A stretch of 64,000 nucleotides of DNA, taken from contig CAZUGF010000001.1 in the NCBI GenBank assembly GCA_964619705.1, positions 225,327 through 289,326 on the forward strand, written 5' to 3'. The notes beneath the pieces were generated by a model. The model saw only the letters and a list, made by a program, of their open reading frames with translations. It made no database searches and had not been told where the DNA came from. Positions 5,748 to 46,199 of this stretch are shown here, one piece after another. The stretch comes from an uncultured Bifidobacteriaceae bacterium (GTDB lineage Bacteria > Acidobacteriota > Vicinamibacteria > Vicinamibacterales > UBA2999). The number at the start of each line of letters is the position of its first letter. The stretch's first letter is position 1. Made by a program: the position numbers and the translations under genes.

Positions 5748-6683
5748 TCAGGCGTCCCCGAACAGCATCACGAGCATCGCCTTCTGCGCGTGCAGGCGGT
5801 TTTCCGCCTGCTCGAAGACGACCGAGGCGCTCGACTCGATGACCTCGTCCGTCACTTCCTCGGAACGGTGCGCGGGGAGGCAGTGCATGAAGGCGGCGTC
5901 CGGCCGCGCGAGCGCCATGAGCGCCTCGTTGACCTGGTAGCGGCTGAACTTGCGCTTCCGCTCCGCGTACTCGACTTCCTGCCCCATCGACGTCCAGACG
6001 TCCGTGTAGACGGCGTCCACGTCCCGGACGGCCGCCTTGGGGTCGGTGAACTCCGTCAGGCCGGCGCCGCCCTGGGAGACCTCCGCCGCCTGGTCCGCGA
6101 CTTCGTCCGGCAGTTCGAAGCCCCTGGGCGTCGCGACGTGGACGGACACGCCGAGCATCATGGCCGCGTGCACGAGCGACGTGCACACGTTGTTGCCGTC
6201 GCCCACGAACGCGATGCGGCGTCCCTCGAACGATCCGTTCCAGCGCTCGGCGAGCGTCTGCATGTCGGCCAGGGCCTGGCACGGGTGCTCTTCGTTGGTG
6301 AGCGCGTTGATGACGCGGAGCGCCGGTGTGGCGAGCGTGATCTCCATCAGCCGGTCCTGGCCGAACGTGCGGATGACGGCGGCATCGACCCAGCGTTCGA
6401 GGTTGCGCGCCACGTCGTCGAGGGGTTCGCGGTCGGCGTGCATCACGTCGGCCGGAATCTCGACGATGTGGCCGCCGAGTTCCCGTACGCCGATGGTGAA
6501 CGTGACGCGCGTGCGGAGGGAGGGCTTCTCGAAGAGCAGGCCGATGTGCCGCCCGGCCAGCGTCTGCGCCGTCGGCGCCTGCGCGCGGCGCTTCCGGTCG
6601 GCCTTGAGGGTCACGGCGAGGTCCACGATCCCGCGCAGCTCGGCCGGCGTCAGGTCCAGGATGGAGAGGAAGTGTCGGTTCAC
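5748..6683 (-). CDS. argF: Ornithine carbamoyltransferase
   Basis: The ORF extends to 7022 but homology starts at the GTG at 6683 (VNRHFLSILDL). Motifs FEKPSLRTRVTF, EEHPCQALAD and FMHCLPAHR are present. It lies 8 nt downstream of the argJ stop. Confidence 0.93.
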   Translation of the reverse strand: MNRHFLSILDLTPAELRGIVDLAVTLKADRKRRAQAPTAQTLAGRHIGLLFEKPSLRTRVTFTIGVRELGGHIVEIPADVMHADREPLDDVARNLERWVDAAVIRTFGQDRLMEITLATPALRVINALTNEEHPCQALADMQTLAERWNGSFEGRRIAFVGDGNNVCTSLVHAAMMLGVSVHVATPRGFELPDEVADQAAEVSQGGAGLTEFTDPKAAVRDVDAVYTDVWTSMGQEVEYAERKRKFSRYQVNEALMALARPDAAFMHCLPAHRSEEVTDEVIESSASVVFEQAENRLHAQKAMLVMLFGDA

Positions 6684-37097: not shown

Positions 37098-38027
37098 ATG
37101 TCCCTGCACCCTCTCGACACCGATCGGTCCCTGCCGACATCCTTGATCGAGATGGTCGGTGCGACACCGCTCGTGCGCCTGCCGCGGATCGAACGGGATC
37201 GGCCCGGCATCGAACTGTACGGAAAGGCGGAGTTCCAGAACCCCGGCGGTTCGGTCAAGGACCGGCCCGCGCGGCGCATGCTGCTCGAGGGCGTGCGGAG
37301 CGGGGCGCTCCGGCCGGGGAAGGTGATTCTGGACGCGACATCCGGCAACACGGGCATTGCCTACGCCATGCTCGGCGCATCGATGGGGTACCCGGTGTCC
37401 CTGTGTGTCCCCGAGAACGTGACGCCCGAGCGCAAGCGGATCCTGCGGGCGCTGGGCGTGGATCTGGTGATGACCAGCCCGCTCGAGGGGTCGGATGGCG
37501 CCATCCGTGAAGCACGGCGGCGATATGAGGCAGACCCGGAGACGTACTTCTATGCCGATCAGTACGGCAACGAGTTCAACTGGCGGGCGCACTACGACAC
37601 GACCGGGCCGGAGATCTTCGAGCAGACCGGCGGACGCGTCACGCACTTCGTGGCCGGGCTGGGGACGAGCGGCACGTTCGTCGGCGCCGGACGCCGGCTC
37701 CGGCAGCTGCAGCCCGCGATCGTGTTGGCGTCGGTGCAGCCGGACTCCCCGCTCCACGGGATCGAGGGCCTGAAGCACATGGAGACAGCCCTCGTGCCCG
37801 CTATCTACGATCCGTCCGTGGCGGACATCGACATGCGCGTCGGGACCGAGGAGGCGCAGGACATGGCCAGGCGCCTGGCGCGCGAAGAAGGCGTGTTCGT
37901 CGGGATCTCGTCGGGCGCCAACGTGGTGGCGGCCCTGCGGGCGGCGACGCCGCCGGCGGTGGTGGTGACCGTGCTGTGTGACAGCGGCGAGCGCTACCTG
38001 TCCGAGCGCTTCTGGGAGGAATCGTGA
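37098..38027 (+). CDS. cysM: Cysteine synthase, CysM type (thiocarboxylate-dependent pathway context)
   Basis: Motifs: PLP-Lys NPGGSVKDRPA, TSGNTGIAYA and GLGTSGTFVG. GTGA overlap with the mec-like gene. Confidence 0.9.
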   Translation: MSLHPLDTDRSLPTSLIEMVGATPLVRLPRIERDRPGIELYGKAEFQNPGGSVKDRPARRMLLEGVRSGALRPGKVILDATSGNTGIAYAMLGASMGYPVSLCVPENVTPERKRILRALGVDLVMTSPLEGSDGAIREARRRYEADPETYFYADQYGNEFNWRAHYDTTGPEIFEQTGGRVTHFVAGLGTSGTFVGAGRRLRQLQPAIVLASVQPDSPLHGIEGLKHMETALVPAIYDPSVADIDMRVGTEEAQDMARRLAREEGVFVGISSGANVVAALRAATPPAVVVTVLCDSGERYLSERFWEES

Positions 38028-38473
38028 CGATAGGGCTCGTGCTGGCGGCGGGGGTGGCGGAGGCGATTCGGGCGCACGGGGCCGAGACCTACCCGCACGA
38101 GTGCTGCGGCGCGCTCCTGGGCCGCGCCGGCACGGCGGTGACTGCGTTCCCGCTGCCCAACACCACCGAGGAGGGGCCGCGGCGCCGGTTCCGGGTCAGT
38201 GCCGACGACTACCGCGCCACCGAGCAGCGTGCCGGCGATCTCGGGCTCGAGCTGCTCGGCTTCTACCACTCGCACCCCGATCACCCCGCGCGTCCGTCGC
38301 AGTACGATCTGGACCACGCGTGGCCGGTGTTCTCGTACCTGATTATCTCGATCCGCAGCGGCGCGCCGCAGGAGATGGCCTCCTGGCGCCTGCGCGACGA
38401 CCGCTCCGCGTTCGACGAGGAATCGCTCGCCCTCGCAGAGGCCGAGCCCGACGCGGTCACTTCTGAGTCCTGA
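38024..38473 (+). CDS. mec: JAMM/MPN+ metalloprotease (Mec-like)
   Basis: Complete JAMM motif: E (HECCGALLG) and HSHPDHPARPSQYD (HxHx7Sx2D). Confidence 0.85.
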   Translation: MTIGLVLAAGVAEAIRAHGAETYPHECCGALLGRAGTAVTAFPLPNTTEEGPRRRFRVSADDYRATEQRAGDLGLELLGFYHSHPDHPARPSQYDLDHAWPVFSYLIISIRSGAPQEMASWRLRDDRSAFDEESLALAEAEPDAVTSES

Positions 38474-38483
38474 GGCCCACATC

Positions 38484-39938
38484 ATGGCGACTACGATCCT
38501 CATTCCGACGCCGCTGCGTCCCTTCACCGACAAGCTCGACGCCGTCGAGGTGGATGGACAGAACATCGGCGAGCTCCTCCAGAACCTGACGACCCGGTTC
38601 GCGCCGCTCAGGCAGCACCTGTTCACGAACGAAGGCCGCCTGAGAAGCTTCGTCAACGTCTACGTGAACGACGAGGACATCCGCTACCTCGCGAAGGACC
38701 AGACACCGGTGCAGCCCGGCGACGTGGTGAGCATCATCCCGTCCGTCGCGGGCGGCAGCGGCGCCGTCGCCGCCCCTCCGCTTCCGCAGTTGTCGCCGGA
38801 GGAGGTGAAGCGCTACAGCCGGCACCTGATCCTGTCGGAGATCGGCATGGACGGACAGCGGGCGCTCAAGGCCGGCAAGGTGCTGTGCATCGGCGCGGGC
38901 GGACTGGGATCGCCCGCCGCGATGTACCTGGCGGCCGCCGGCGTGGGCACCATCGGCGTCGTGGACTTCGACGTCGTGGACATGAGCAACCTGCAGCGCC
39001 AGTTGCTGCACACCACGCCCGACGTCGGGCGCTCGAAGCTGGACTCGGCCCGGGACAAGATCCTGGCGCTCAACCCCAACGTCCGCGTCGAGACCTACGA
39101 CACCGCGCTCAGCTCGGCCAACGCCCTCGAGATCTTCCGTCCCTACGACGTGATCCTCGACGGGACGGACAACTTCCCGACGCGATACCTGGTCAACGAT
39201 GCGTGCGTCCTGCTCGGCAAGCCCAATGCCTACGGCAGCATCTTCCGCTTCGAGGGACAGGCCTCGGTGTTCGCGACCCGCGGCGGGCCGTGCTATCGCT
39301 GCCTGTACCCCGAGCCGCCGCCGCCGGGCCTGGTGCCGAGCTGCGCCGAGGCCGGCGTGCTCGGCGTCCTCCCCGGCATCATCGGCACCATCCAGGCCAC
39401 CGAGACGCTCAAGCTCCTGCTCGGGGTCGGCGAGTCGCTGGCCGGACGCTTCCTCATCTTCGACGCGCTGCGGATGCGCTTCCGCGAGATGAAGCTCCGC
39501 CGCGACCCGGAGTGCCCCGTGTGCGGCGACCATCCCACCGTACGCGAACTCATCGACTACGATCAGTTCTGCGGCGTCGGCGCCGTCGCGCCGGATGCCG
39601 GATCAGGTGCCCCCATGTCCCAAGACATCAGCCCCCTCGAGTTGAAGGCCGCGTTCGACCGCGGCGACACGGTCGTCCTCGTCGACGTCCGCGAGCCGCA
39701 GGAATACCAGATCAACAAGATCCCGGGATCCGTCCTCATCCCCCTCGGCGAGATCCCGCAGCGCCACGCCGAGCTCGGCGATCCGTCGGCGCTCATCGTC
39801 ACGCAGTGCAAGTCCGGCGTCCGCAGCGCCAAGGCGGCGGCGTTCCTGCGCACCGCGGGCTTCTCCAACGTGAAGAACCTGACGGGCGGGATCCTGGCCT
39901 GGATCGACCAGGTGGACCCGAGCCAGCCGAAGTACTAG
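38484..39938 (+). CDS. Fusion protein: CysO-like ubiquitin-fold sulfur carrier + MoeZ-type E1 adenylyltransferase + rhodanese
   Basis: Residues 1-93 are colinear with mycobacterial CysO and end in IIPSVAGG. There is no stop codon (GCG GGC GGC AGC GGC...). A short linker follows. Then comes an E1 domain (RYSRHLILSEIG, IGAGGLGSPAAMYLAAAGVG, CYRC, CPVC) and a rhodanese domain with active Cys (VTQCKSGVRS). Confidence 0.9.
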   Translation: MATTILIPTPLRPFTDKLDAVEVDGQNIGELLQNLTTRFAPLRQHLFTNEGRLRSFVNVYVNDEDIRYLAKDQTPVQPGDVVSIIPSVAGGSGAVAAPPLPQLSPEEVKRYSRHLILSEIGMDGQRALKAGKVLCIGAGGLGSPAAMYLAAAGVGTIGVVDFDVVDMSNLQRQLLHTTPDVGRSKLDSARDKILALNPNVRVETYDTALSSANALEIFRPYDVILDGTDNFPTRYLVNDACVLLGKPNAYGSIFRFEGQASVFATRGGPCYRCLYPEPPPPGLVPSCAEAGVLGVLPGIIGTIQATETLKLLLGVGESLAGRFLIFDALRMRFREMKLRRDPECPVCGDHPTVRELIDYDQFCGVGAVAPDAGSGAPMSQDISPLELKAAFDRGDTVVLVDVREPQEYQINKIPGSVLIPLGEIPQRHAELGDPSALIVTQCKSGVRSAKAAAFLRTAGFSNVKNLTGGILAWIDQVDPSQPKY

Positions 39939-39944
39939 CCCGCA

Positions 39945-40057: not shown

Positions 40058-40105
40058 GCTTTGTACGCGGTTTGTCACAGGGCTTTGTACCCGGCTTGTA
40101 ACAGG
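40058..40105 (+). repeat. Perfectly adjacent 24-nt tandem repeat upstream of iscR (four TTGTNAC-type cores at ~11-13 nt spacing)
   Basis: GCTTTGTACGCGGTTTGTCACAGG and GCTTTGTACCCGGCTTGTAACAGG are identical at 21 of 24 positions. The last core overlaps a possible -35 (TTGTAA 40096-40101), 18 nt before TAAAAT (40120-40125). Confidence 0.7.
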
Positions 40106-40158
40106 AGGGGGTTGCGGGCTAAAATAGGACTACTGAGGTCGGATTTAGGGACCCGCCA

Positions 40159-40644
40159 ATGCTGAGATTCTCAAAGAAGTCTGACTACGGCTTGATTGCG
40201 ATGTCGCACCTGGCGATGCGCCAGGACGGCGGGGGCTCGTCGAGCGCCCGCGAGATTTCGGAGAGCTACGCCATCCCGCAGGAGCTGCTCGCCAAGGTGC
40301 TCCAGCGGCTCGCGCGCGCCAAGCTGCTCGTGTCCGTGCAGGGTACGCGCGGCGGCTATCGCCTGGGCCGGCCGGCGGCGACCATCAGCGTCGCCGACGT
40401 GATCGAGGCCGTCGATGGGCCGGTGACCGTGACGGCGTGCGCGCCGGACGATCACACGTGCGAGCAGTACGGCACCTGCAGCATCCGGGACCCCCTCTGG
40501 AAGATCAAGGGACGCATCATCGAGACCCTGACCACGGTCTCCGTGGCGGAGCTCGCGGCCGACAGCAGCGAGCCGGCCCCGCTGCCCGTGACGCCCAAGG
40601 TCTCGCGGCTGCTCTTCGTGCCCCCGGCCGGAGGGTCCTCGTGA
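40159..40644 (+). CDS. iscR: Rrf2-family transcriptional regulator (IscR-like)
   Basis: The N-terminus is MLRFSKKSDYGLIAMSHLA with a wHTH. A three-Cys cluster motif is present (CAPDDHTCEQYGTC). It is the first gene of the Fe-S operon. Confidence 0.85.
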   Translation: MLRFSKKSDYGLIAMSHLAMRQDGGGSSSAREISESYAIPQELLAKVLQRLARAKLLVSVQGTRGGYRLGRPAATISVADVIEAVDGPVTVTACAPDDHTCEQYGTCSIRDPLWKIKGRIIETLTTVSVAELAADSSEPAPLPVTPKVSRLLFVPPAGGSS

Positions 40645-41816
40645 TCTATCTCGACCACCACGCGACGACGCCCGTGGACGCCCGCGTGGTCGAGGCGATG
40701 CTCCCGTATTTCTCGGGGACGTTCGGCAACCCGTCGAGCCGCAACCACCGGTTCGGCTGGGAGGCGGGCGAGGCCGTCGAGCGCGCGCGGAAGCAGGTGG
40801 CGGCGCTCGTCGGGGCGAGCCCGAAGGAGATCGTGTTCACGAGCGGCGCGACGGAGGCGAACAACCTCGCGATTGCCGGTGCGGCGCGTGTCGGCGATCG
40901 CCGGCACATCGTGACGGTGGCCACCGAGCACAAGGCGGTCCTCGATCCGTGCCGGCGGCTGGAGGCCGAGGGGTGGACGCTGACCGTGCTGCCTGTCGCA
41001 CCGGACGGCATCGTGGACCTCGCTGCGGTGGACCGTGCGATCACGGACGAGACAGCGCTCGTGAGCGTGATGGCGGCGAACAACGAGATTGGCGTCCTCC
41101 AGCCGGTGGCGGAGATTGCGCGCATGGCCGCGGCGCGTGGGGCCATCGTGCACACCGATGCCGTGCAGGCGGCGGGGAAGGTCCCGCTGGACCTGACGGC
41201 GCTCGGCGTCCACCTGGCGTCGGTCACGGCGCACAAGGTGTACGGGCCGAAGGGCGTGGGTGCGCTGTACGTGCGCGGCGCCGGGCCGAAGGCCCGCCGT
41301 GCGGGCGTCGACGGTGCGGCCGTGCGGCTCGTGCCGCAGATCGTCGGCGGCGGACAGGAGCGCGGGCTTCGCGCAGGCACGCTCAACGTCCCCGGGATTG
41401 TCGGCTTCGGGGCGGCGTGCGAGCTGGCGGCGGCCGGGATGGCGGAGGAGAGCGTCCGCCTCGGTGTGCTGCGCGACAGGCTGCGTGCGGCGCTCGGCCG
41501 GGCGCTCGACGGCGTGCGGATCAACGGGTCGATGACGGCGAGGCTGCCGGGCAACCTGAACGTGAGCGTTGACGGTGTCGATGGCGAGGCCCTGCTCGTC
41601 GGCCTGCACGATGTGGCGGTGTCCTCGGGCGCGGCGTGTACGGCGGCCGAGCCGTCGCACGTGCTGATGGCGCTCGGGTTGAGCCGGGATCGGGCGCTCG
41701 CGTCCCTGCGGTTCGGGCTGGGGCGCGGCACGACGGAGACGGACGTGGACCAGGCGGCGGCCCGTGTGGCCGCCATGGTCGTGCACCTGCGGGCGATGTC
41801 GCCCGTGGGAGCGTGA
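40641..41816 (+). CDS. iscS: Cysteine desulfurase, IscS/NifS type
   Basis: The GTG at 40641 overlaps the iscR stop (GTGA). Motifs: IYLDHHATTPVD, FTSGATEANN, PLP-Lys SVTAHKVYGPKG and active-site loop SSGAACT. Confidence 0.9.
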   Translation: MIYLDHHATTPVDARVVEAMLPYFSGTFGNPSSRNHRFGWEAGEAVERARKQVAALVGASPKEIVFTSGATEANNLAIAGAARVGDRRHIVTVATEHKAVLDPCRRLEAEGWTLTVLPVAPDGIVDLAAVDRAITDETALVSVMAANNEIGVLQPVAEIARMAAARGAIVHTDAVQAAGKVPLDLTALGVHLASVTAHKVYGPKGVGALYVRGAGPKARRAGVDGAAVRLVPQIVGGGQERGLRAGTLNVPGIVGFGAACELAAAGMAEESVRLGVLRDRLRAALGRALDGVRINGSMTARLPGNLNVSVDGVDGEALLVGLHDVAVSSGAACTAAEPSHVLMALGLSRDRALASLRFGLGRGTTETDVDQAAARVAAMVVHLRAMSPVGA

Positions 41817-41859: not shown

Positions 41860-42240
41860 ATGAACTACTCCGCAGACGTCATCGACCGCGTCCGAAGCCC
41901 GCTGCGGGTGGGGTCGCTGCCTCGTGACGGCGCGGACGTGGGCACGGGCGAGGCGGGCACGATGGAAGACGGCGCGGTGGCGCGCATCCAGGTGCGCGTG
42001 GCCGGCCGCCGCATCGTCGAGGCGCGGTTCCGGGTGTTCGGGTGCAGCGCGGCGATTGCGAGCGCGAGCCTGATGGCGGAGTGGCTCGAGGGTGCCGCGG
42101 TCGGCGACGCGCCGGGCGTCACGGCGGATGGGATCGTCGCCGCGCTGGCCCTGCCGGCGGAACGCCGCCCGACAGCGGCGCTGGTGGTGACGGCGGCGGA
42201 GCGGGCGCTCGCGGACTGGAAGAGGAAGGCACAGCGATGA
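41860..42240 (+). CDS. IscU/NifU-N-like protein lacking two of the three cluster-ligand cysteines
   Basis: Colinear with IscU: [18 protein letters not shown]; [24 protein letters not shown]. The first Cys region reads [13 protein letters not shown]. The His-Cys region reads [13 protein letters not shown]. Confidence 0.7.
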
Positions 42241-42569
42241 TCGAGATCACGGAGAGCGCGGCACAGGTGATTGCCCGGCAGCTCGAACGGAGCCGCCTGG
42301 GCAGCGGCGGCGGCCTGCGGATTGCGGTCAAGGCCGGCGGGTGCTCCGGCTACGCGTACACGTTTGCGTTCGACGAGGCGCCCCGGGCCACGGACCAGGT
42401 CTTCGAGGGACCGGGCGGCGCGCGGGTGTTCGTCGACCCGCGGAGCCTGGCGCTCCTCGACGGCACCGTGCTCGACTACGACGCCGGGAACCTGATGGCG
42501 TCGAACTTTACCTTGAGGAACCCGCACGCCAGGAGCACCTGCGGCTGCGGCGAGTCCTTTTCCGCCTGA
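42237..42569 (+). CDS. A-type Fe-S carrier (IscA/SufA/HesB family)
   Basis: ATGA overlap with the upstream gene. Motifs: [15 protein letters not shown] and the C-terminal CGCGESF. Confidence 0.9.
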
Positions 42570-42601
42570 GAGGCACAGAGCCTGGAGCGAGACCCGGAAT
42601 C

Positions 42602-44047
42602 ATGTCCACATCCACCCAAGTCATCGAAGAACTGGCGAACACCGACTACAAGTACGGCTTCGTCACCGACGTCGAGCAGGACATCGTCCCCAAGGGGCTG
42701 AGCGAGGATGTCATCCGGCTCATCTCCGCGAAGAAGGAGGAGCCCGCATGGCTCCTCGACTGGCGCCTCCAGGCGTACCGCCTGTGGCTGAAGATGGCCG
42801 AGCCGGCGTGGCAGAACGTCACGTTCGAGAAGGTCGACTACCAGGGCATCTCCTACTACGCGGCGCCGAAGGAGAAGAAGAAGCTCGGCAGCATGGACGA
42901 AGTGGACCCCGAGATCCGGGCCACGTTCGACAAGCTGGGCATTCCGCTGATCGAGCAGCAGCTGCTGGCCGGCGTCGCGGTGGACGCGGTGTTCGACTCG
43001 GTGTCCGTCGCCACGACGTTCCGGAAGAAGCTGGCCGAGCTCGGGATCATCTTCTGCTCGTTCTCCGAAGCCGTGAAGGACCATCCGGACCTCGTGCGGA
43101 AGTACCTGGGGTCCGTCGTGCCGCACACGGACAATTTCTTCGCCGCGCTCAACTCGGCCGTGTTCACGGATGGCAGCTTCGTCTTCGTGCCGAAGGGCGT
43201 CCGGTGTCCGATGGAGCTCTCCACCTACTTCCGCATCAACGCGAAGGACACGGGGCAGTTCGAGCGGACGCTGATCGTGTGCGAGGAGGGCGCGACCGTG
43301 AGCTATCTCGAGGGCTGCACGGCGCCCAAGCGTGACGAGAACCAGCTGCACGCGGCCGTCGTGGAGCTCGTGGCGCTGGATCGCGCCACCATCAAGTACT
43401 CGACGGTCCAGAACTGGTACCCCGGGGACAAGAACGGCGTCGGCGGCATCTACAACTTCGTCACCAAGCGCGGGCTGTGCAAGGGCGTCGGGAGCAAGAT
43501 CACCTGGACGCAGGTGGAGACCGGCTCCGCCATCACGTGGAAGTACCCGAGCTGCATCCTGCAGGGCGACGACTCGGTGGGCGAGTTCTACTCCGTGGCC
43601 GTCACCAACAACTTCCAGCAGGCCGACACCGGCACGAAGATGATTCATCTCGGCCGGAACACGCGCAGCACCATCGTGTCGAAGGGCATTTCGGCCGGCC
43701 GCGGCCAGAACACCTACCGCGGGGCGGTGAAGATCGGCCGGAAGGCGGTCAACGCCCGGAACTACTCGCAGTGCGACTCGCTGCTCATCGGCGACCGCTG
43801 CGGCGCGCACACGTTCCCGTACCTGGAGATCAAGCACACGTCCGCGAAGGTCGAGCACGAGGCGTCCACGTCGAAGATCGGCGAGGACCAGATCTTCTAC
43901 TGCGAGCAGCGCGGCATCTCCCGCGAGGACGCCATCAACATGATCGTCAGCGGGTTCTGCAAGGACGTCTTCCGCGAGCTCCCGATGGAGTTCGCCGTCG
44001 AGGCCCAGAAGCTCCTCGGCATTTCGCTCGAAGGATCGGTAGGTTAA
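42602..44047 (+). CDS. sufB: Fe-S cluster assembly scaffold SufB
   Basis: 481 aa. N-terminus [41 protein letters not shown], with a highly conserved C-terminal half ([26 protein letters not shown]). Confidence 0.95.
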
Positions 44048-44813: not shown

Positions 44814-46199
44814 ATGAGCAGCGTCATCGAGGGCGTTCCCACCGGCCAGGCCCACTATCTCGCCGAACACGCGCGGTTCCTCCGCGGACGCGGAGAGGCG
44901 GCGCCCGCCTGGCTCCAGGCGCTGCGCGAGAAGGCGCGCGTGCGCTTCGAGGGCCTCGGCTTCCCGACCACGCGCCAGGAGGAGTGGCGGTTCACCAACG
45001 TGGCCCCGATCGCGGGGACGCCGTTCACCCTTGCCGAGGGCACGCCGACCAACGCGTCATCCCTGGTGACGCGCACCGGCATTGCCGGCGCGATCCGCGT
45101 GGTCCTGCTGAACGGGCGATTCTCACCCGAGCTGTCACAGCTCGCGGACATGCCGGCGGGCCTCAAGGTGGGGAGCCTGGCCACGGCCATGGCCCAGGGC
45201 GCGCCGGAGTGCGCGGCACTCGGCCGTCAGGTCGCCGACACGCACGCGTTTGCCGCCCTCAACACGGCGTTCCTGGAGGACGGCGCGCTCATCTCCGTCC
45301 GGAAGGGCGCGGTCATCGAGGCGCCCGTGCACGTGATTGTCGCCGCCGGCGGGACGGGCCGCACGATGACGCATCCGCGCGTGCTGCTGCTGGCTGCCGA
45401 GGGCAGCCAGGTGAGCGTGGCGCTGAGTTTCGTCGGGGGGGCCGGCGACGCCCACCTGACCAACGCCGTCATCGAGGCCTCCGTCGCGGAGCGGGCCGTG
45501 GTCGACTGCTCGCTGGACCAGCGTGAGACCGACGCGGCCTACCACGTGAACACGCTGCACGTGCATACCGCGCGCAGCAGCACGTTCCGCCTCCGCACGA
45601 TCACGCTCGGCGGACGCCTCGTGCGCAACGACGCCACGGCCGTCCTGGGCGGCGCCGGCGCCCACGTGGACATCGATGGCTGCTACCTGGCCGACGGTCA
45701 GAGCCTGGTGGATAACCACACGACCATCGATCACGCCGAGCCGCACTGCACGAGCCACGAACTCTACAAGGGCATCCTGGACGGCAAGGCGCGGGCCGTG
45801 TTCAACGGGCGCATCATCGTGCGCCTCGACGCGCAGAAGACCGACTCCAAGCAGACGAACCGGGCCCTGCTGCTCTCCGACGACGCGACGATGAACTCGA
45901 ACCCGCAGCTCGAGATCTTCGCCGACGACGTGAAGTGCACGCACGGCGCGGCGGTGGGGCAGCTCGACGACGAGGCGATGTTCTACCTGCAGGCGCGGGG
46001 CCTCACGGCCGAGGATGCGCGCGACATGCTGATTCGCGCGTACGCGGGGGAAGTGCTGCAGCGGATTGCGATTCCCGAGCTGAGGGCGCAGCTCGAGCGC
46101 GACCTCTTCGTGCAGCTCGATCGCGACCTGGCGGCCCACGCCGTGTCCGCGCCGGCCGCGCGGGACCGGGCCACGGCCGGCGCCGGAACGGACCGGTGA
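44814..46199 (+). CDS. sufD: Fe-S cluster assembly protein SufD
   Basis: 461 aa with the motif TTRQEEWRFTNV. The C-terminal beta-helix region is homologous to SufB (FNGRIIVRLDAQKTDSKQTNRALLLS). Confidence 0.9.
   Translation: MSSVIEGVPTGQAHYLAEHARFLRGRGEAAPAWLQALREKARVRFEGLGFPTTRQEEWRFTNVAPIAGTPFTLAEGTPTNASSLVTRTGIAGAIRVVLLNGRFSPELSQLADMPAGLKVGSLATAMAQGAPECAALGRQVADTHAFAALNTAFLEDGALISVRKGAVIEAPVHVIVAAGGTGRTMTHPRVLLLAAEGSQVSVALSFVGGAGDAHLTNAVIEASVAERAVVDCSLDQRETDAAYHVNTLHVHTARSSTFRLRTITLGGRLVRNDATAVLGGAGAHVDIDGCYLADGQSLVDNHTTIDHAEPHCTSHELYKGILDGKARAVFNGRIIVRLDAQKTDSKQTNRALLLSDDATMNSNPQLEIFADDVKCTHGAAVGQLDDEAMFYLQARGLTAEDARDMLIRAYAGEVLQRIAIPELRAQLERDLFVQLDRDLAAHAVSAPAARDRATAGAGTDR

Follow-up and report, generated by a model that had tools for sequence, protein, structure and literature searches.

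A CysO-like sulfur carrier encoded in frame with an E1-rhodanese enzyme beside a JAMM protease gene, and its predicted release after Gly-Gly

A carrier-E1-rhodanese fusion in a cysM-like/JAMM operon

This study concerns a stretch of 64,000 nucleotides, referred to here as the window (contig CAZUGF010000001.1 of assembly GCA_964619705.1, positions 225,327 to 289,326 of the forward strand), deposited under the name of an uncultured Bifidobacteriaceae bacterium and placed by GTDB in the Vicinamibacterales of the Acidobacteriota. Three co-directional, tightly packed open reading frames (ORFs) at 37098-39938 encode a CysM-like cysteine synthase, a JAMM metalloprotease, and a single polypeptide in which a CysO-like sulfur-carrier domain precedes an E1-like adenylyltransferase and a rhodanese domain. 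The features of this region, numbered from the first letter of the window, are the following.

37098-38027, + strand: CysM-like pyridoxal phosphate-dependent cysteine synthase, 309 aa (Pfam PALP, E 9e-63)
38024-38473, + strand: JAMM/MPN+ metalloprotease, 149 aa (Pfam Prok-JAB, E 6e-25)
38484-39938, + strand: fusion ORF, 484 aa, comprising carrier, linker, E1 and rhodanese (Pfam; same sequence in an independent assembly)
38484-38756, + strand: CysO-like beta-grasp sulfur-carrier domain, residues 1-91, ending IIPSVAGG (Pfam ThiS 5-91, E 3.7e-13)
38751-38756, + strand: codons GGC GGC of Gly90-Gly91, the predicted activation site and predicted cleavage site (after Gly91)
38757-38786, + strand: linker, residues 92-101, SGAVAAPPLP (low identity among relatives, low model confidence)
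38787-39578, + strand: E1-like adenylyltransferase, residues 102-365 (Pfam ThiF 111-346, E 6.8e-84)
39633-39908, + strand: rhodanese domain, residues 384-475, with active-site Cys442 in QCKSGVRS (Pfam Rhodanese, E 5.8e-20)

An earlier description of this DNA, made from its letters and ORFs without database searches (the sequence-only reading), had proposed that one ORF encodes three modules, and a Pfam search of the 484-aa product returned precisely these, ThiS, ThiF and Rhodanese. The same description had translation running on in frame past the carrier's terminal glycines, which agrees with the codons at 38748-38765 (GCG GGC GGC AGC GGC GCC), where there is neither a stop nor a frameshift. 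The C-terminal peptide of the carrier, ...DVVSIIPSVAGG, is followed after the predicted cut by SGAVAAPP..., and 393 residues of the fusion protein lie beyond the Gly-Gly (GG). Support for the junction, which the sequence-only reading had asked to be checked in reads, comes from run SRR16797977, which Logan assembled independently: a contig of 2,383 bp matches the window letter for letter from 37560 to 39942, across the junction, and the exact 484-aa protein is encoded in this assembly too. An internal E1 start, GTG at Val108 after GGAGGAG, was set aside, as the spacing is too short and such a start would still not free the carrier GG.

Among proteins of known structure, the best sequence match of the carrier domain is Mycobacterium tuberculosis CysO (3dwg_C; E 2.8e-16, 38% identity), followed by the Amycolatopsis CysO of 4n6e_B. 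Residues 2-91 align end to end with CysO 2-93, and both sequences end in AGG; thus, the proposed colinearity with mycobacterial CysO stood, while the proposed length of 93 residues had to be corrected to 91. The cut site that had been placed after Gly93 is accordingly Gly91 in the protein of the window, Gly93 being the M. tuberculosis numbering. In the AlphaFold2 model of residues 1-100 the domain adopts a beta-grasp fold, with a mean predicted local distance difference test score (pLDDT) of 81 and a predicted template-modelling score (pTM) of 0.71, as the earlier description had expected. The top folds found for this model by Foldseek are the CysO structures 4n6e_B, 3dwg_C and 3dwm_A (template-modelling scores 0.76-0.88), and MoaD-related proteins, SAMP1 and Urm1 rank after them. 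Residues 89-100 are predicted to be disordered, pLDDT falling below 50 for residues 87-103. On these comparisons, the carrier domain is orthologous to free-standing CysO and to the stand-alone carriers that sister taxa encode within the same order of genes. It is a ThiS/MoaD-family beta-grasp with a GG of the CysO type, but one that is internal, at residues 90-91, rather than a free terminus. No other ThiS-like ORF was found in the operon or elsewhere in the 64-kb window.

The activating enzyme differs from what had been expected. Its motifs include the leader LSPEEVKRY, GAGGLGSP, and two CxxC motifs, CYRC (270-273) and CPVC (344-347). Such CxxC motifs mark the MoeB and MoeBR proteins, while in MoeZ and MoeZR the first is replaced by NYRD and the second is absent (Voss et al., PMC3227635). 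The E1 and rhodanese of a MoeZR are present, but both CxxC motifs are kept, so that the E1, taken for MoeZ-type in the sequence-only reading, is MoeBR-like in that nomenclature. NCBIfam models give 540 bits for MoeB (PRK07411) and 520 bits for MoeZ (PRK07878, cut-off 647 bits), both below their cut-offs. A CysO-like carrier is thus fused here to a CxxC-containing E1 of the MoeBR type, whereas the MoeBR type of M. tuberculosis has no interaction with CysO, and this pairing indicates that the rules by which carriers and E1 enzymes are matched differ between phyla.

The JAMM protein directly upstream is complete, as previously suggested. Its catalytic signature is intact (E26, followed by H82-S-H84-x7-S92-x2-D95), its best match in the PDB is the Mov34/MPN family protein 2kcq_A (118 bits), and a Mec+-like JAMM with an intact metal site is therefore encoded next to the carrier. 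The coupling of its gene to that of the cysteine synthase was also confirmed: the GTG start of the JAMM ORF (38024-38473) overlaps the TGA stop of the cysM-like ORF (37098-38027) in the tetranucleotide GTGA. The fusion ORF starts 10 nt past the JAMM ORF.

Conservation of Gly-Gly and switching between fused and unfused states

The fusion is by no means rare. Among 5.8 billion proteins, more than 120 clusters with the fusion architecture were found, the best 120 of which (74-100% identity, 482-494 aa; from NCBI, JGI, ENA and Logan) all consist of ThiS, ThiF and Rhodanese. In a library clustered at 50% identity, fusion representatives were seen down to 41% identity (41-61%), with ordinary E1-rhodanese proteins of 370-400 aa forming the majority around them. 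Cluster look-ups placed fusions in Gemmatimonadales and in a Clostridia-associated cluster of 123 members.

For the comparison of whole loci, one genome per GTDB species was scanned for the carrier domain with a 7-sequence alignment; at least 579 relatives were detected and the best 80 kept. Most of these 80 loci belong to Acidobacteriota (Vicinamibacterales, Bryobacterales, Terriglobia, Acidiferrales), and a few to Gemmatimonadales, Kryptoniota, Ignavibacteriales and Eisenbacteria. This distribution makes a Vicinamibacteria-like acidobacterium the most likely source of the window. The order cysM-like gene, JAB (the JAMM gene), carrier, E1-rhodanese is kept in essentially all of them, with a JAB gene whose active site is intact directly upstream of the carrier in essentially all loci and the cysM-like gene upstream in most. 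This agrees with the ORFs and Pfam domains of the window itself, and with the earlier statement that all components sit in one cluster. The only clear break of the compact operon among the loci was seen in the metagenome-assembled genome (MAG) of an Ignavibacteriales bacterium (L047, 1-3021), where cysM and JAB occupy 4-773, carrier and E1 start from 2749, and about 2 kb of other sequence lies between. Three further loci (L002, L017 and L044) have an operon of the acidobacterial type, with 64-79% carrier identity, in MAGs labelled Cyanobacteriota, Bifidobacteriaceae and Bacteroidetes. These labels likely reflect mis-binned contigs or loose naming rather than the true hosts, although horizontal transfer may be an alternative.

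The survey of orthologues for a stop codon after GG, proposed in the sequence-only reading, gave a divided picture: carrier and E1-rhodanese form one ORF of 475-512 aa in 49 of the 80 loci and are separate in the other 31. The 49 species-representative genomes with the fusion include contigs of the 3-Mb scale. In none of the 31 unfused loci does the carrier end at GG; its ORF runs 1-55 residues past it in every case, with tails such as V, R, WS, RA, RAS, NGTRT and NAVPPNRRAQG. Unlike these relatives, the actinobacterial CysO chains 3dwg_C and 4n6e_B end at GG. In one unfused locus checked with Pfam (L013), a ThiS ORF of 94 aa with 3 residues after GG is overlapped by 10 nt by the ThiF-Rhodanese ORF, with JAB upstream. 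In some unfused loci, L028 and L024 among them, one in-frame stop is all that keeps the two ORFs apart; in others the ORFs lie in different frames and overlap by 4 or 10 nt. When the two states were mapped by Fitch parsimony on a neighbour-joining tree built from the E1-rhodanese portions of all 80 taxa, at least 9 changes between them were needed.

The positions around the junction are conserved very unevenly. Neither G90 nor G91 varies in any of 21 diverse fusions, with identities down to 39%, or in any of the 80 loci. In the 49 fused species GG is followed by a small residue (A, V, S or T), and GG and the conserved RY of the E1 are 16 to 45 residues apart. Mean pairwise identities among these 49 species were calculated by region.

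Carrier: 0.68
Linker (residues 92-101): 0.14
E1: 0.79
E1-rhodanese connector: 0.20
Rhodanese: 0.62

The linkers of two loci (L008 and L020, in both of which the fused ORF begins near 6274) are unusually long and contain a tandem short motif, AEKGYDPFS...AEKGSYPFS in the former and EKGYGPFS...AEKGPYPFS in the latter.

Other arrangements of the same domains were met with as well: carrier-rhodanese-E1 (P0131, 486 aa), JAB-carrier-rhodanese-E1 (P0135, 634 aa; WP_188152452.1 of the cultured gammaproteobacterium Teredinibacter waterburyi), and JAB-carrier-E1-rhodanese (P0148, 619 aa). All three keep [AS]GG at the carrier end, and as polyproteins they would be self-processing.

A predicted precursor and the alternatives to it

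In ThiS, MoaD and CysO alike, adenylation and thiocarboxylation need a free C-terminal glycine carboxylate, and the carrier must therefore be cut off from its activating enzyme, as the sequence-only reading had argued. Invariance of GG, the freely varying linker, the tails after GG and the switching of states all support this requirement. Activation in cis within the intact fusion, which the same reading had allowed as another option, is chemically implausible for the same reason. The simplest explanation for an invariant GG next to an unconstrained sequence, for tails in every orthologue, and for repeated switching would be a peptidase that always cuts after GG. The JAMM protein is the obvious candidate, as its gene is translationally coupled, recurs in the operons of the relatives, and in some cases is joined in one ORF to the carrier and the E1. 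We consider it likely, on these comparisons, that the carrier is in all cases synthesised in precursor form, and that the adjacent JAMM cuts it after Gly91, which would free both the carrier and the E1.

One may picture the process as follows. The primary translation product would be a carrier precursor, extended at its C-terminus by the entire E1-rhodanese enzyme, and the JAMM encoded upstream would hydrolyse the peptide bond after Gly91, giving a carrier of 10,078 Da with a free Gly-Gly carboxylate and an E1-rhodanese of 41,898 Da. The E1 would then adenylate the freed carrier, and the persulfide of the rhodanese would turn the adenylate into a thiocarboxylate, which the CysM-like enzyme could take as a sulfide donor. 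The same JAMM might free cysteine from the carrier-Cys adduct, like Mec+ in M. tuberculosis. If so, it would cut the bond between GG and the following residue X in every catalytic cycle, and would strip any C-terminal extension on the way. Any sequence after GG would then be tolerated, and we infer that tails and fusions may be nearly neutral and come and go. The cluster is most probably a protein-thiocarboxylate sulfur-transfer system serving cysteine synthesis.

Several points weigh against this interpretation. We infer the cleavage, its site and the protease responsible for it, and likewise the metabolic product. Since the protease that cleaves the MoaX fusion of M. tuberculosis is itself unidentified, adjacency of a JAMM gene is no proof. 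The AlphaFold2 model of the full-length fusion, built from a shallow alignment, is mediocre (pLDDT 68, pTM 0.47) and is no guide to docking of the carrier on the E1. E. coli CysM uses free sulfide or thiosulfate as the sulfur source, with no carrier, and it is to this enzyme that the CysM-like protein is nearer by sequence: the E. coli and Salmonella CysM proteins are its closest relatives of solved structure, with 238 bits, and the carrier-dependent, O-phosphoserine-specific CysM of M. tuberculosis scores 193 bits. The substrate may accordingly be O-phosphoserine or O-acetylserine. In NCBIfam, cysM (TIGR01138) is the top model, at 334 bits under the cut-off of 394 bits. Moreover, one sub-clade of Vicinamibacterales swaps the cysM-like gene for a PALP-rhodanese fusion of 467 aa, 33-36% identical to the CysM of the window (4032-5435 of L013, + strand; the same arrangement is found in L023, L025, L026, L032, L037, L038, L040, L051 and L058), which lies upstream of JAB, carrier and E1-rhodanese, and brings a second rhodanese into the operon. 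The affinity of the CysM-like enzyme, the missed cut-off and the swap in this sub-clade together make the end product less certain than the sulfur-transfer chemistry.

The neighbourhood of the operon bears on the same question. Upstream lie genes for a CoA-transferase III, a homoserine dehydrogenase-like protein, an aminotransferase (minus strand) and a SIMPL/DUF541 protein. A gap of 220 bp on the 3' side of the fusion ORF is followed by Rrf2 and Fe-S cluster assembly genes.

40096-40125: sigma-70-like promoter-like site, the only such site in the region
40159-40644: Rrf2
40686-41816: cysteine desulfurase
41860-42240: NifU_N
42237-42569: HesB/IscA
42599-44047: SufB
44814-46199: SufD-like

An intrinsic terminator was found neither between the genes of the operon nor after the fusion ORF. 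The Rrf2/suf cluster is probably a transcription unit separate from the carrier operon; Rrf2 and the desulfurase are found on the 3' side of the carrier operon in many related Vicinamibacteria loci too, and it is possible that the downstream desulfurase charges the rhodanese.

Could the operon serve some purpose other than cysteine synthesis? The carrier might act in thiolation of tRNA, of a cofactor or of a secondary metabolite, or in conjugation of the SAMP/TtuB type, with the JAMM as maturase and deconjugase. Apart from the affinity of the CysM-like enzyme and the PALP-rhodanese sub-clade, this would fit the Fe-S cluster assembly operon downstream and the weak NCBIfam matches to SAMP1 (47 bits) and desampylase (69 bits), both below cut-off. 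Nevertheless, we regard it as unlikely: the cysM-like gene is translationally coupled to the JAMM gene and lies upstream in most of the 80 loci, the closest solved relatives of the carrier are CysO proteins, this type of operon was tied to a cysteine synthase by Iyer et al., and the Rrf2/suf cluster has a promoter-like site of its own. If, on the other hand, the cut after GG were made by autoproteolysis or by a housekeeping protease, the JAMM would be left with the carrier-Cys adduct alone, and this would be consistent with Mec+ being known only for hydrolysis of the adduct, as well as with the case of MoaX. However, hydrolysis of the adduct and cleavage of the precursor are the same reaction on the bond following GG, the JAMM enzymes DR0402, HvJAMM1 and PfJAMM1 cleave linear fusions of ubiquitin-like (Ubl) domains, trimming of the QbsD type is an accepted model, and P0135 and P0148 carry JAB on one polypeptide with carrier and E1; such a division of labour seems distinctly improbable in this light.

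It might also be supposed that the fusion stays intact, the beta-grasp serving the E1 permanently as a domain for regulation or docking and a free carrier being encoded elsewhere. Iyer et al. infer a role other than that of a carrier for an Ubl domain fused to ThiF that co-occurs with a stand-alone ThiS, and the search for a free carrier covered 64 kb of the genome. Yet the domain studied here is a ThiS/MoaD-family CysO orthologue and not the 'distinct' Ubl of the Campylobacter class, in sister species a separate gene at this position encodes the domain, a second ThiS-like ORF is absent from window and operon, and an invariant GG stands beside an unconstrained linker, all of which makes a permanently joined domain very unlikely. 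An error of sequencing or assembly, in which a lost stop or a frameshift has joined two genes, might be suspected because one stop codon or a short overlap is all that separates some unfused relatives from the fused ones, but it has next to no probability in view of the identical Logan assembly, the more than 120 clusters from four sources, the 49 fused species genomes with their large contigs, and the fusion representatives at 41-61% identity.

A more far-reaching, and in our estimation quite doubtful, proposal is that the fusion is a gated pro-enzyme, in which the docked carrier silences the E1 until cleavage by the JAMM activates it, and from which the released carrier is perhaps conjugated in a SAMP/TtuB-like manner. 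The carrier would dock on its own E1, or on that of a dimer partner, with the tail running past the adenylation site, and a cut in situ would leave it pre-loaded, in a strict 1:1 stoichiometry. If this were true, the JAMM would act as the pathway's master switch, for instance during oxidative stress, and no bacterial system would come closer to the processing of ubiquitin precursors.

Returning to the likelier possibility, a precursor that is routinely cut after Gly91, its significance does not lie in any new kind of chemistry. Thousands of proteins kept in databases as 'MoeB' are carrier::E1-rhodanese polyproteins, and, with the carrier hidden inside such a 'MoeB', Acidobacteria and other soil phyla will be mis-scored as devoid of a carrier when pathways are reconstructed gene by gene. 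The lineage also represents a natural experiment, with something after GG in every carrier and the fusion gained or lost at least 9 times; it suggests that an obligatory peptidase acting after GG makes the downstream sequence selectively free, and in this way licenses gene fusion. Finally, the fusion offers a simple substrate for studies on the specificity of bacterial JAMM proteases towards linear Ubl fusions.

Comparison with known systems

The type of operon, Ubl-E1 fusions in general, and cleavage of MoaD-MoaE fusions by JAMM have already been published. In our literature search, in which subscription papers were incompletely covered, no paper on a carrier::E1-rhodanese fusion in a cysM/JAMM operon was found. 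An 'Ubl-E1-TBP' fusion was noted in 2010. The closest precedent is operon type 4c of Iyer, Burroughs and Aravind (2006, Table 1; PMC1779556), composed of ThiS/MoaD, E1-Rhod, JAB and a cysteine synthase, whose species list includes the acidobacterium Solibacter usitatus. The same four components lie in one conserved neighbourhood here, with the same predicted link to cysteine; in operon 4c, however, the carrier is a separate gene, and the in-frame fusion, the universal tails after GG and the switching of states were not described there. The same authors proposed that JAB proteins free ThiS/MoaD domains from fusions (PMC1779556).

The CysO/CysM/Mec+/MoeZ(R) pathway of M. tuberculosis, in which Mec+ hydrolyses the CysO-Cys peptide bond (PMC3227635), shares with the operon described here a beta-grasp carrier with the AGG end, a JAMM, a pyridoxal phosphate-dependent cysteine synthase, an E1-rhodanese, and the same proposed chemistry. 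It differs in that the present operon joins carrier and E1 in one protein and contains all components, that MoeZR lacks the two CxxC motifs which the present E1 has, and that the present CysM is nearer to that of E. coli. In M. tuberculosis CysO, GG is already the C-terminus and maturation is not required, whereas further sequence follows the carrier of the window.

Beta-grasp domains N-terminal to an E1-like adenylyltransferase are also known in the Campylobacter-type ThiF, whose Ubl domain is distinct from ThiS; a separate, unfused ThiS is encoded along with it in a thiamine operon (Iyer et al. 2006; PMC1779556). The protein studied here is of another kind: its fused domain matches ThiS/CysO and is the carrier, its operon contains no free carrier, it has a rhodanese tail and a JAMM neighbour, and its context is cysM/JAB rather than thiamine genes.

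In the MoaD-MoaE fusions (MoaX of M. tuberculosis and DR2607) a carrier is likewise joined in frame to a partner from its pathway, and a cut after GG is required. MoaX must be cleaved after Gly82 of its GG (PMC4326299), and the JAMM protein DR0402 of D. radiodurans cleaves the natural MoaD-MoaE fusion (PMC8832034). Unlike in our case, the partner is the sulfur acceptor MoaE and not an E1, and the product is molybdopterin and not cysteine.

JAMM-trimmed precursors form another group of relatives by mechanism, with residues C-terminal to GG and a cluster-encoded JAMM bearing the catalytic motif, and both of these are present in the operon analysed here. The HcyS/HcyD pair of the Wolinella methionine pathway is a case of a carrier precursor trimmed by a JAMM. 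In thioquinolobactin synthesis, QbsD strips two residues after the GG of QbsE, and in that of chuangxinmycin CxnF was proposed to strip ten from CxnE (PMC5925218); in both systems the residues after GG must be taken off by the cluster-encoded JAMM before adenylation. The unfused relatives, with their tails of 1-55 aa, are exactly of this QbsE/CxnE type; in the fusion, the extensions of 1-10 residues have their counterpart in an enzyme of 393 residues.

A more distant parallel is provided by eukaryotic ubiquitin precursors. Ub-L40, Ub-S27a and polyubiquitin are linear fusions from which ubiquitin is released by a peptidase acting after Gly-Gly; ubiquitin, however, is not fused to its own E1, and the releasing enzymes are mostly deubiquitinating enzymes of the cysteine-protease type.

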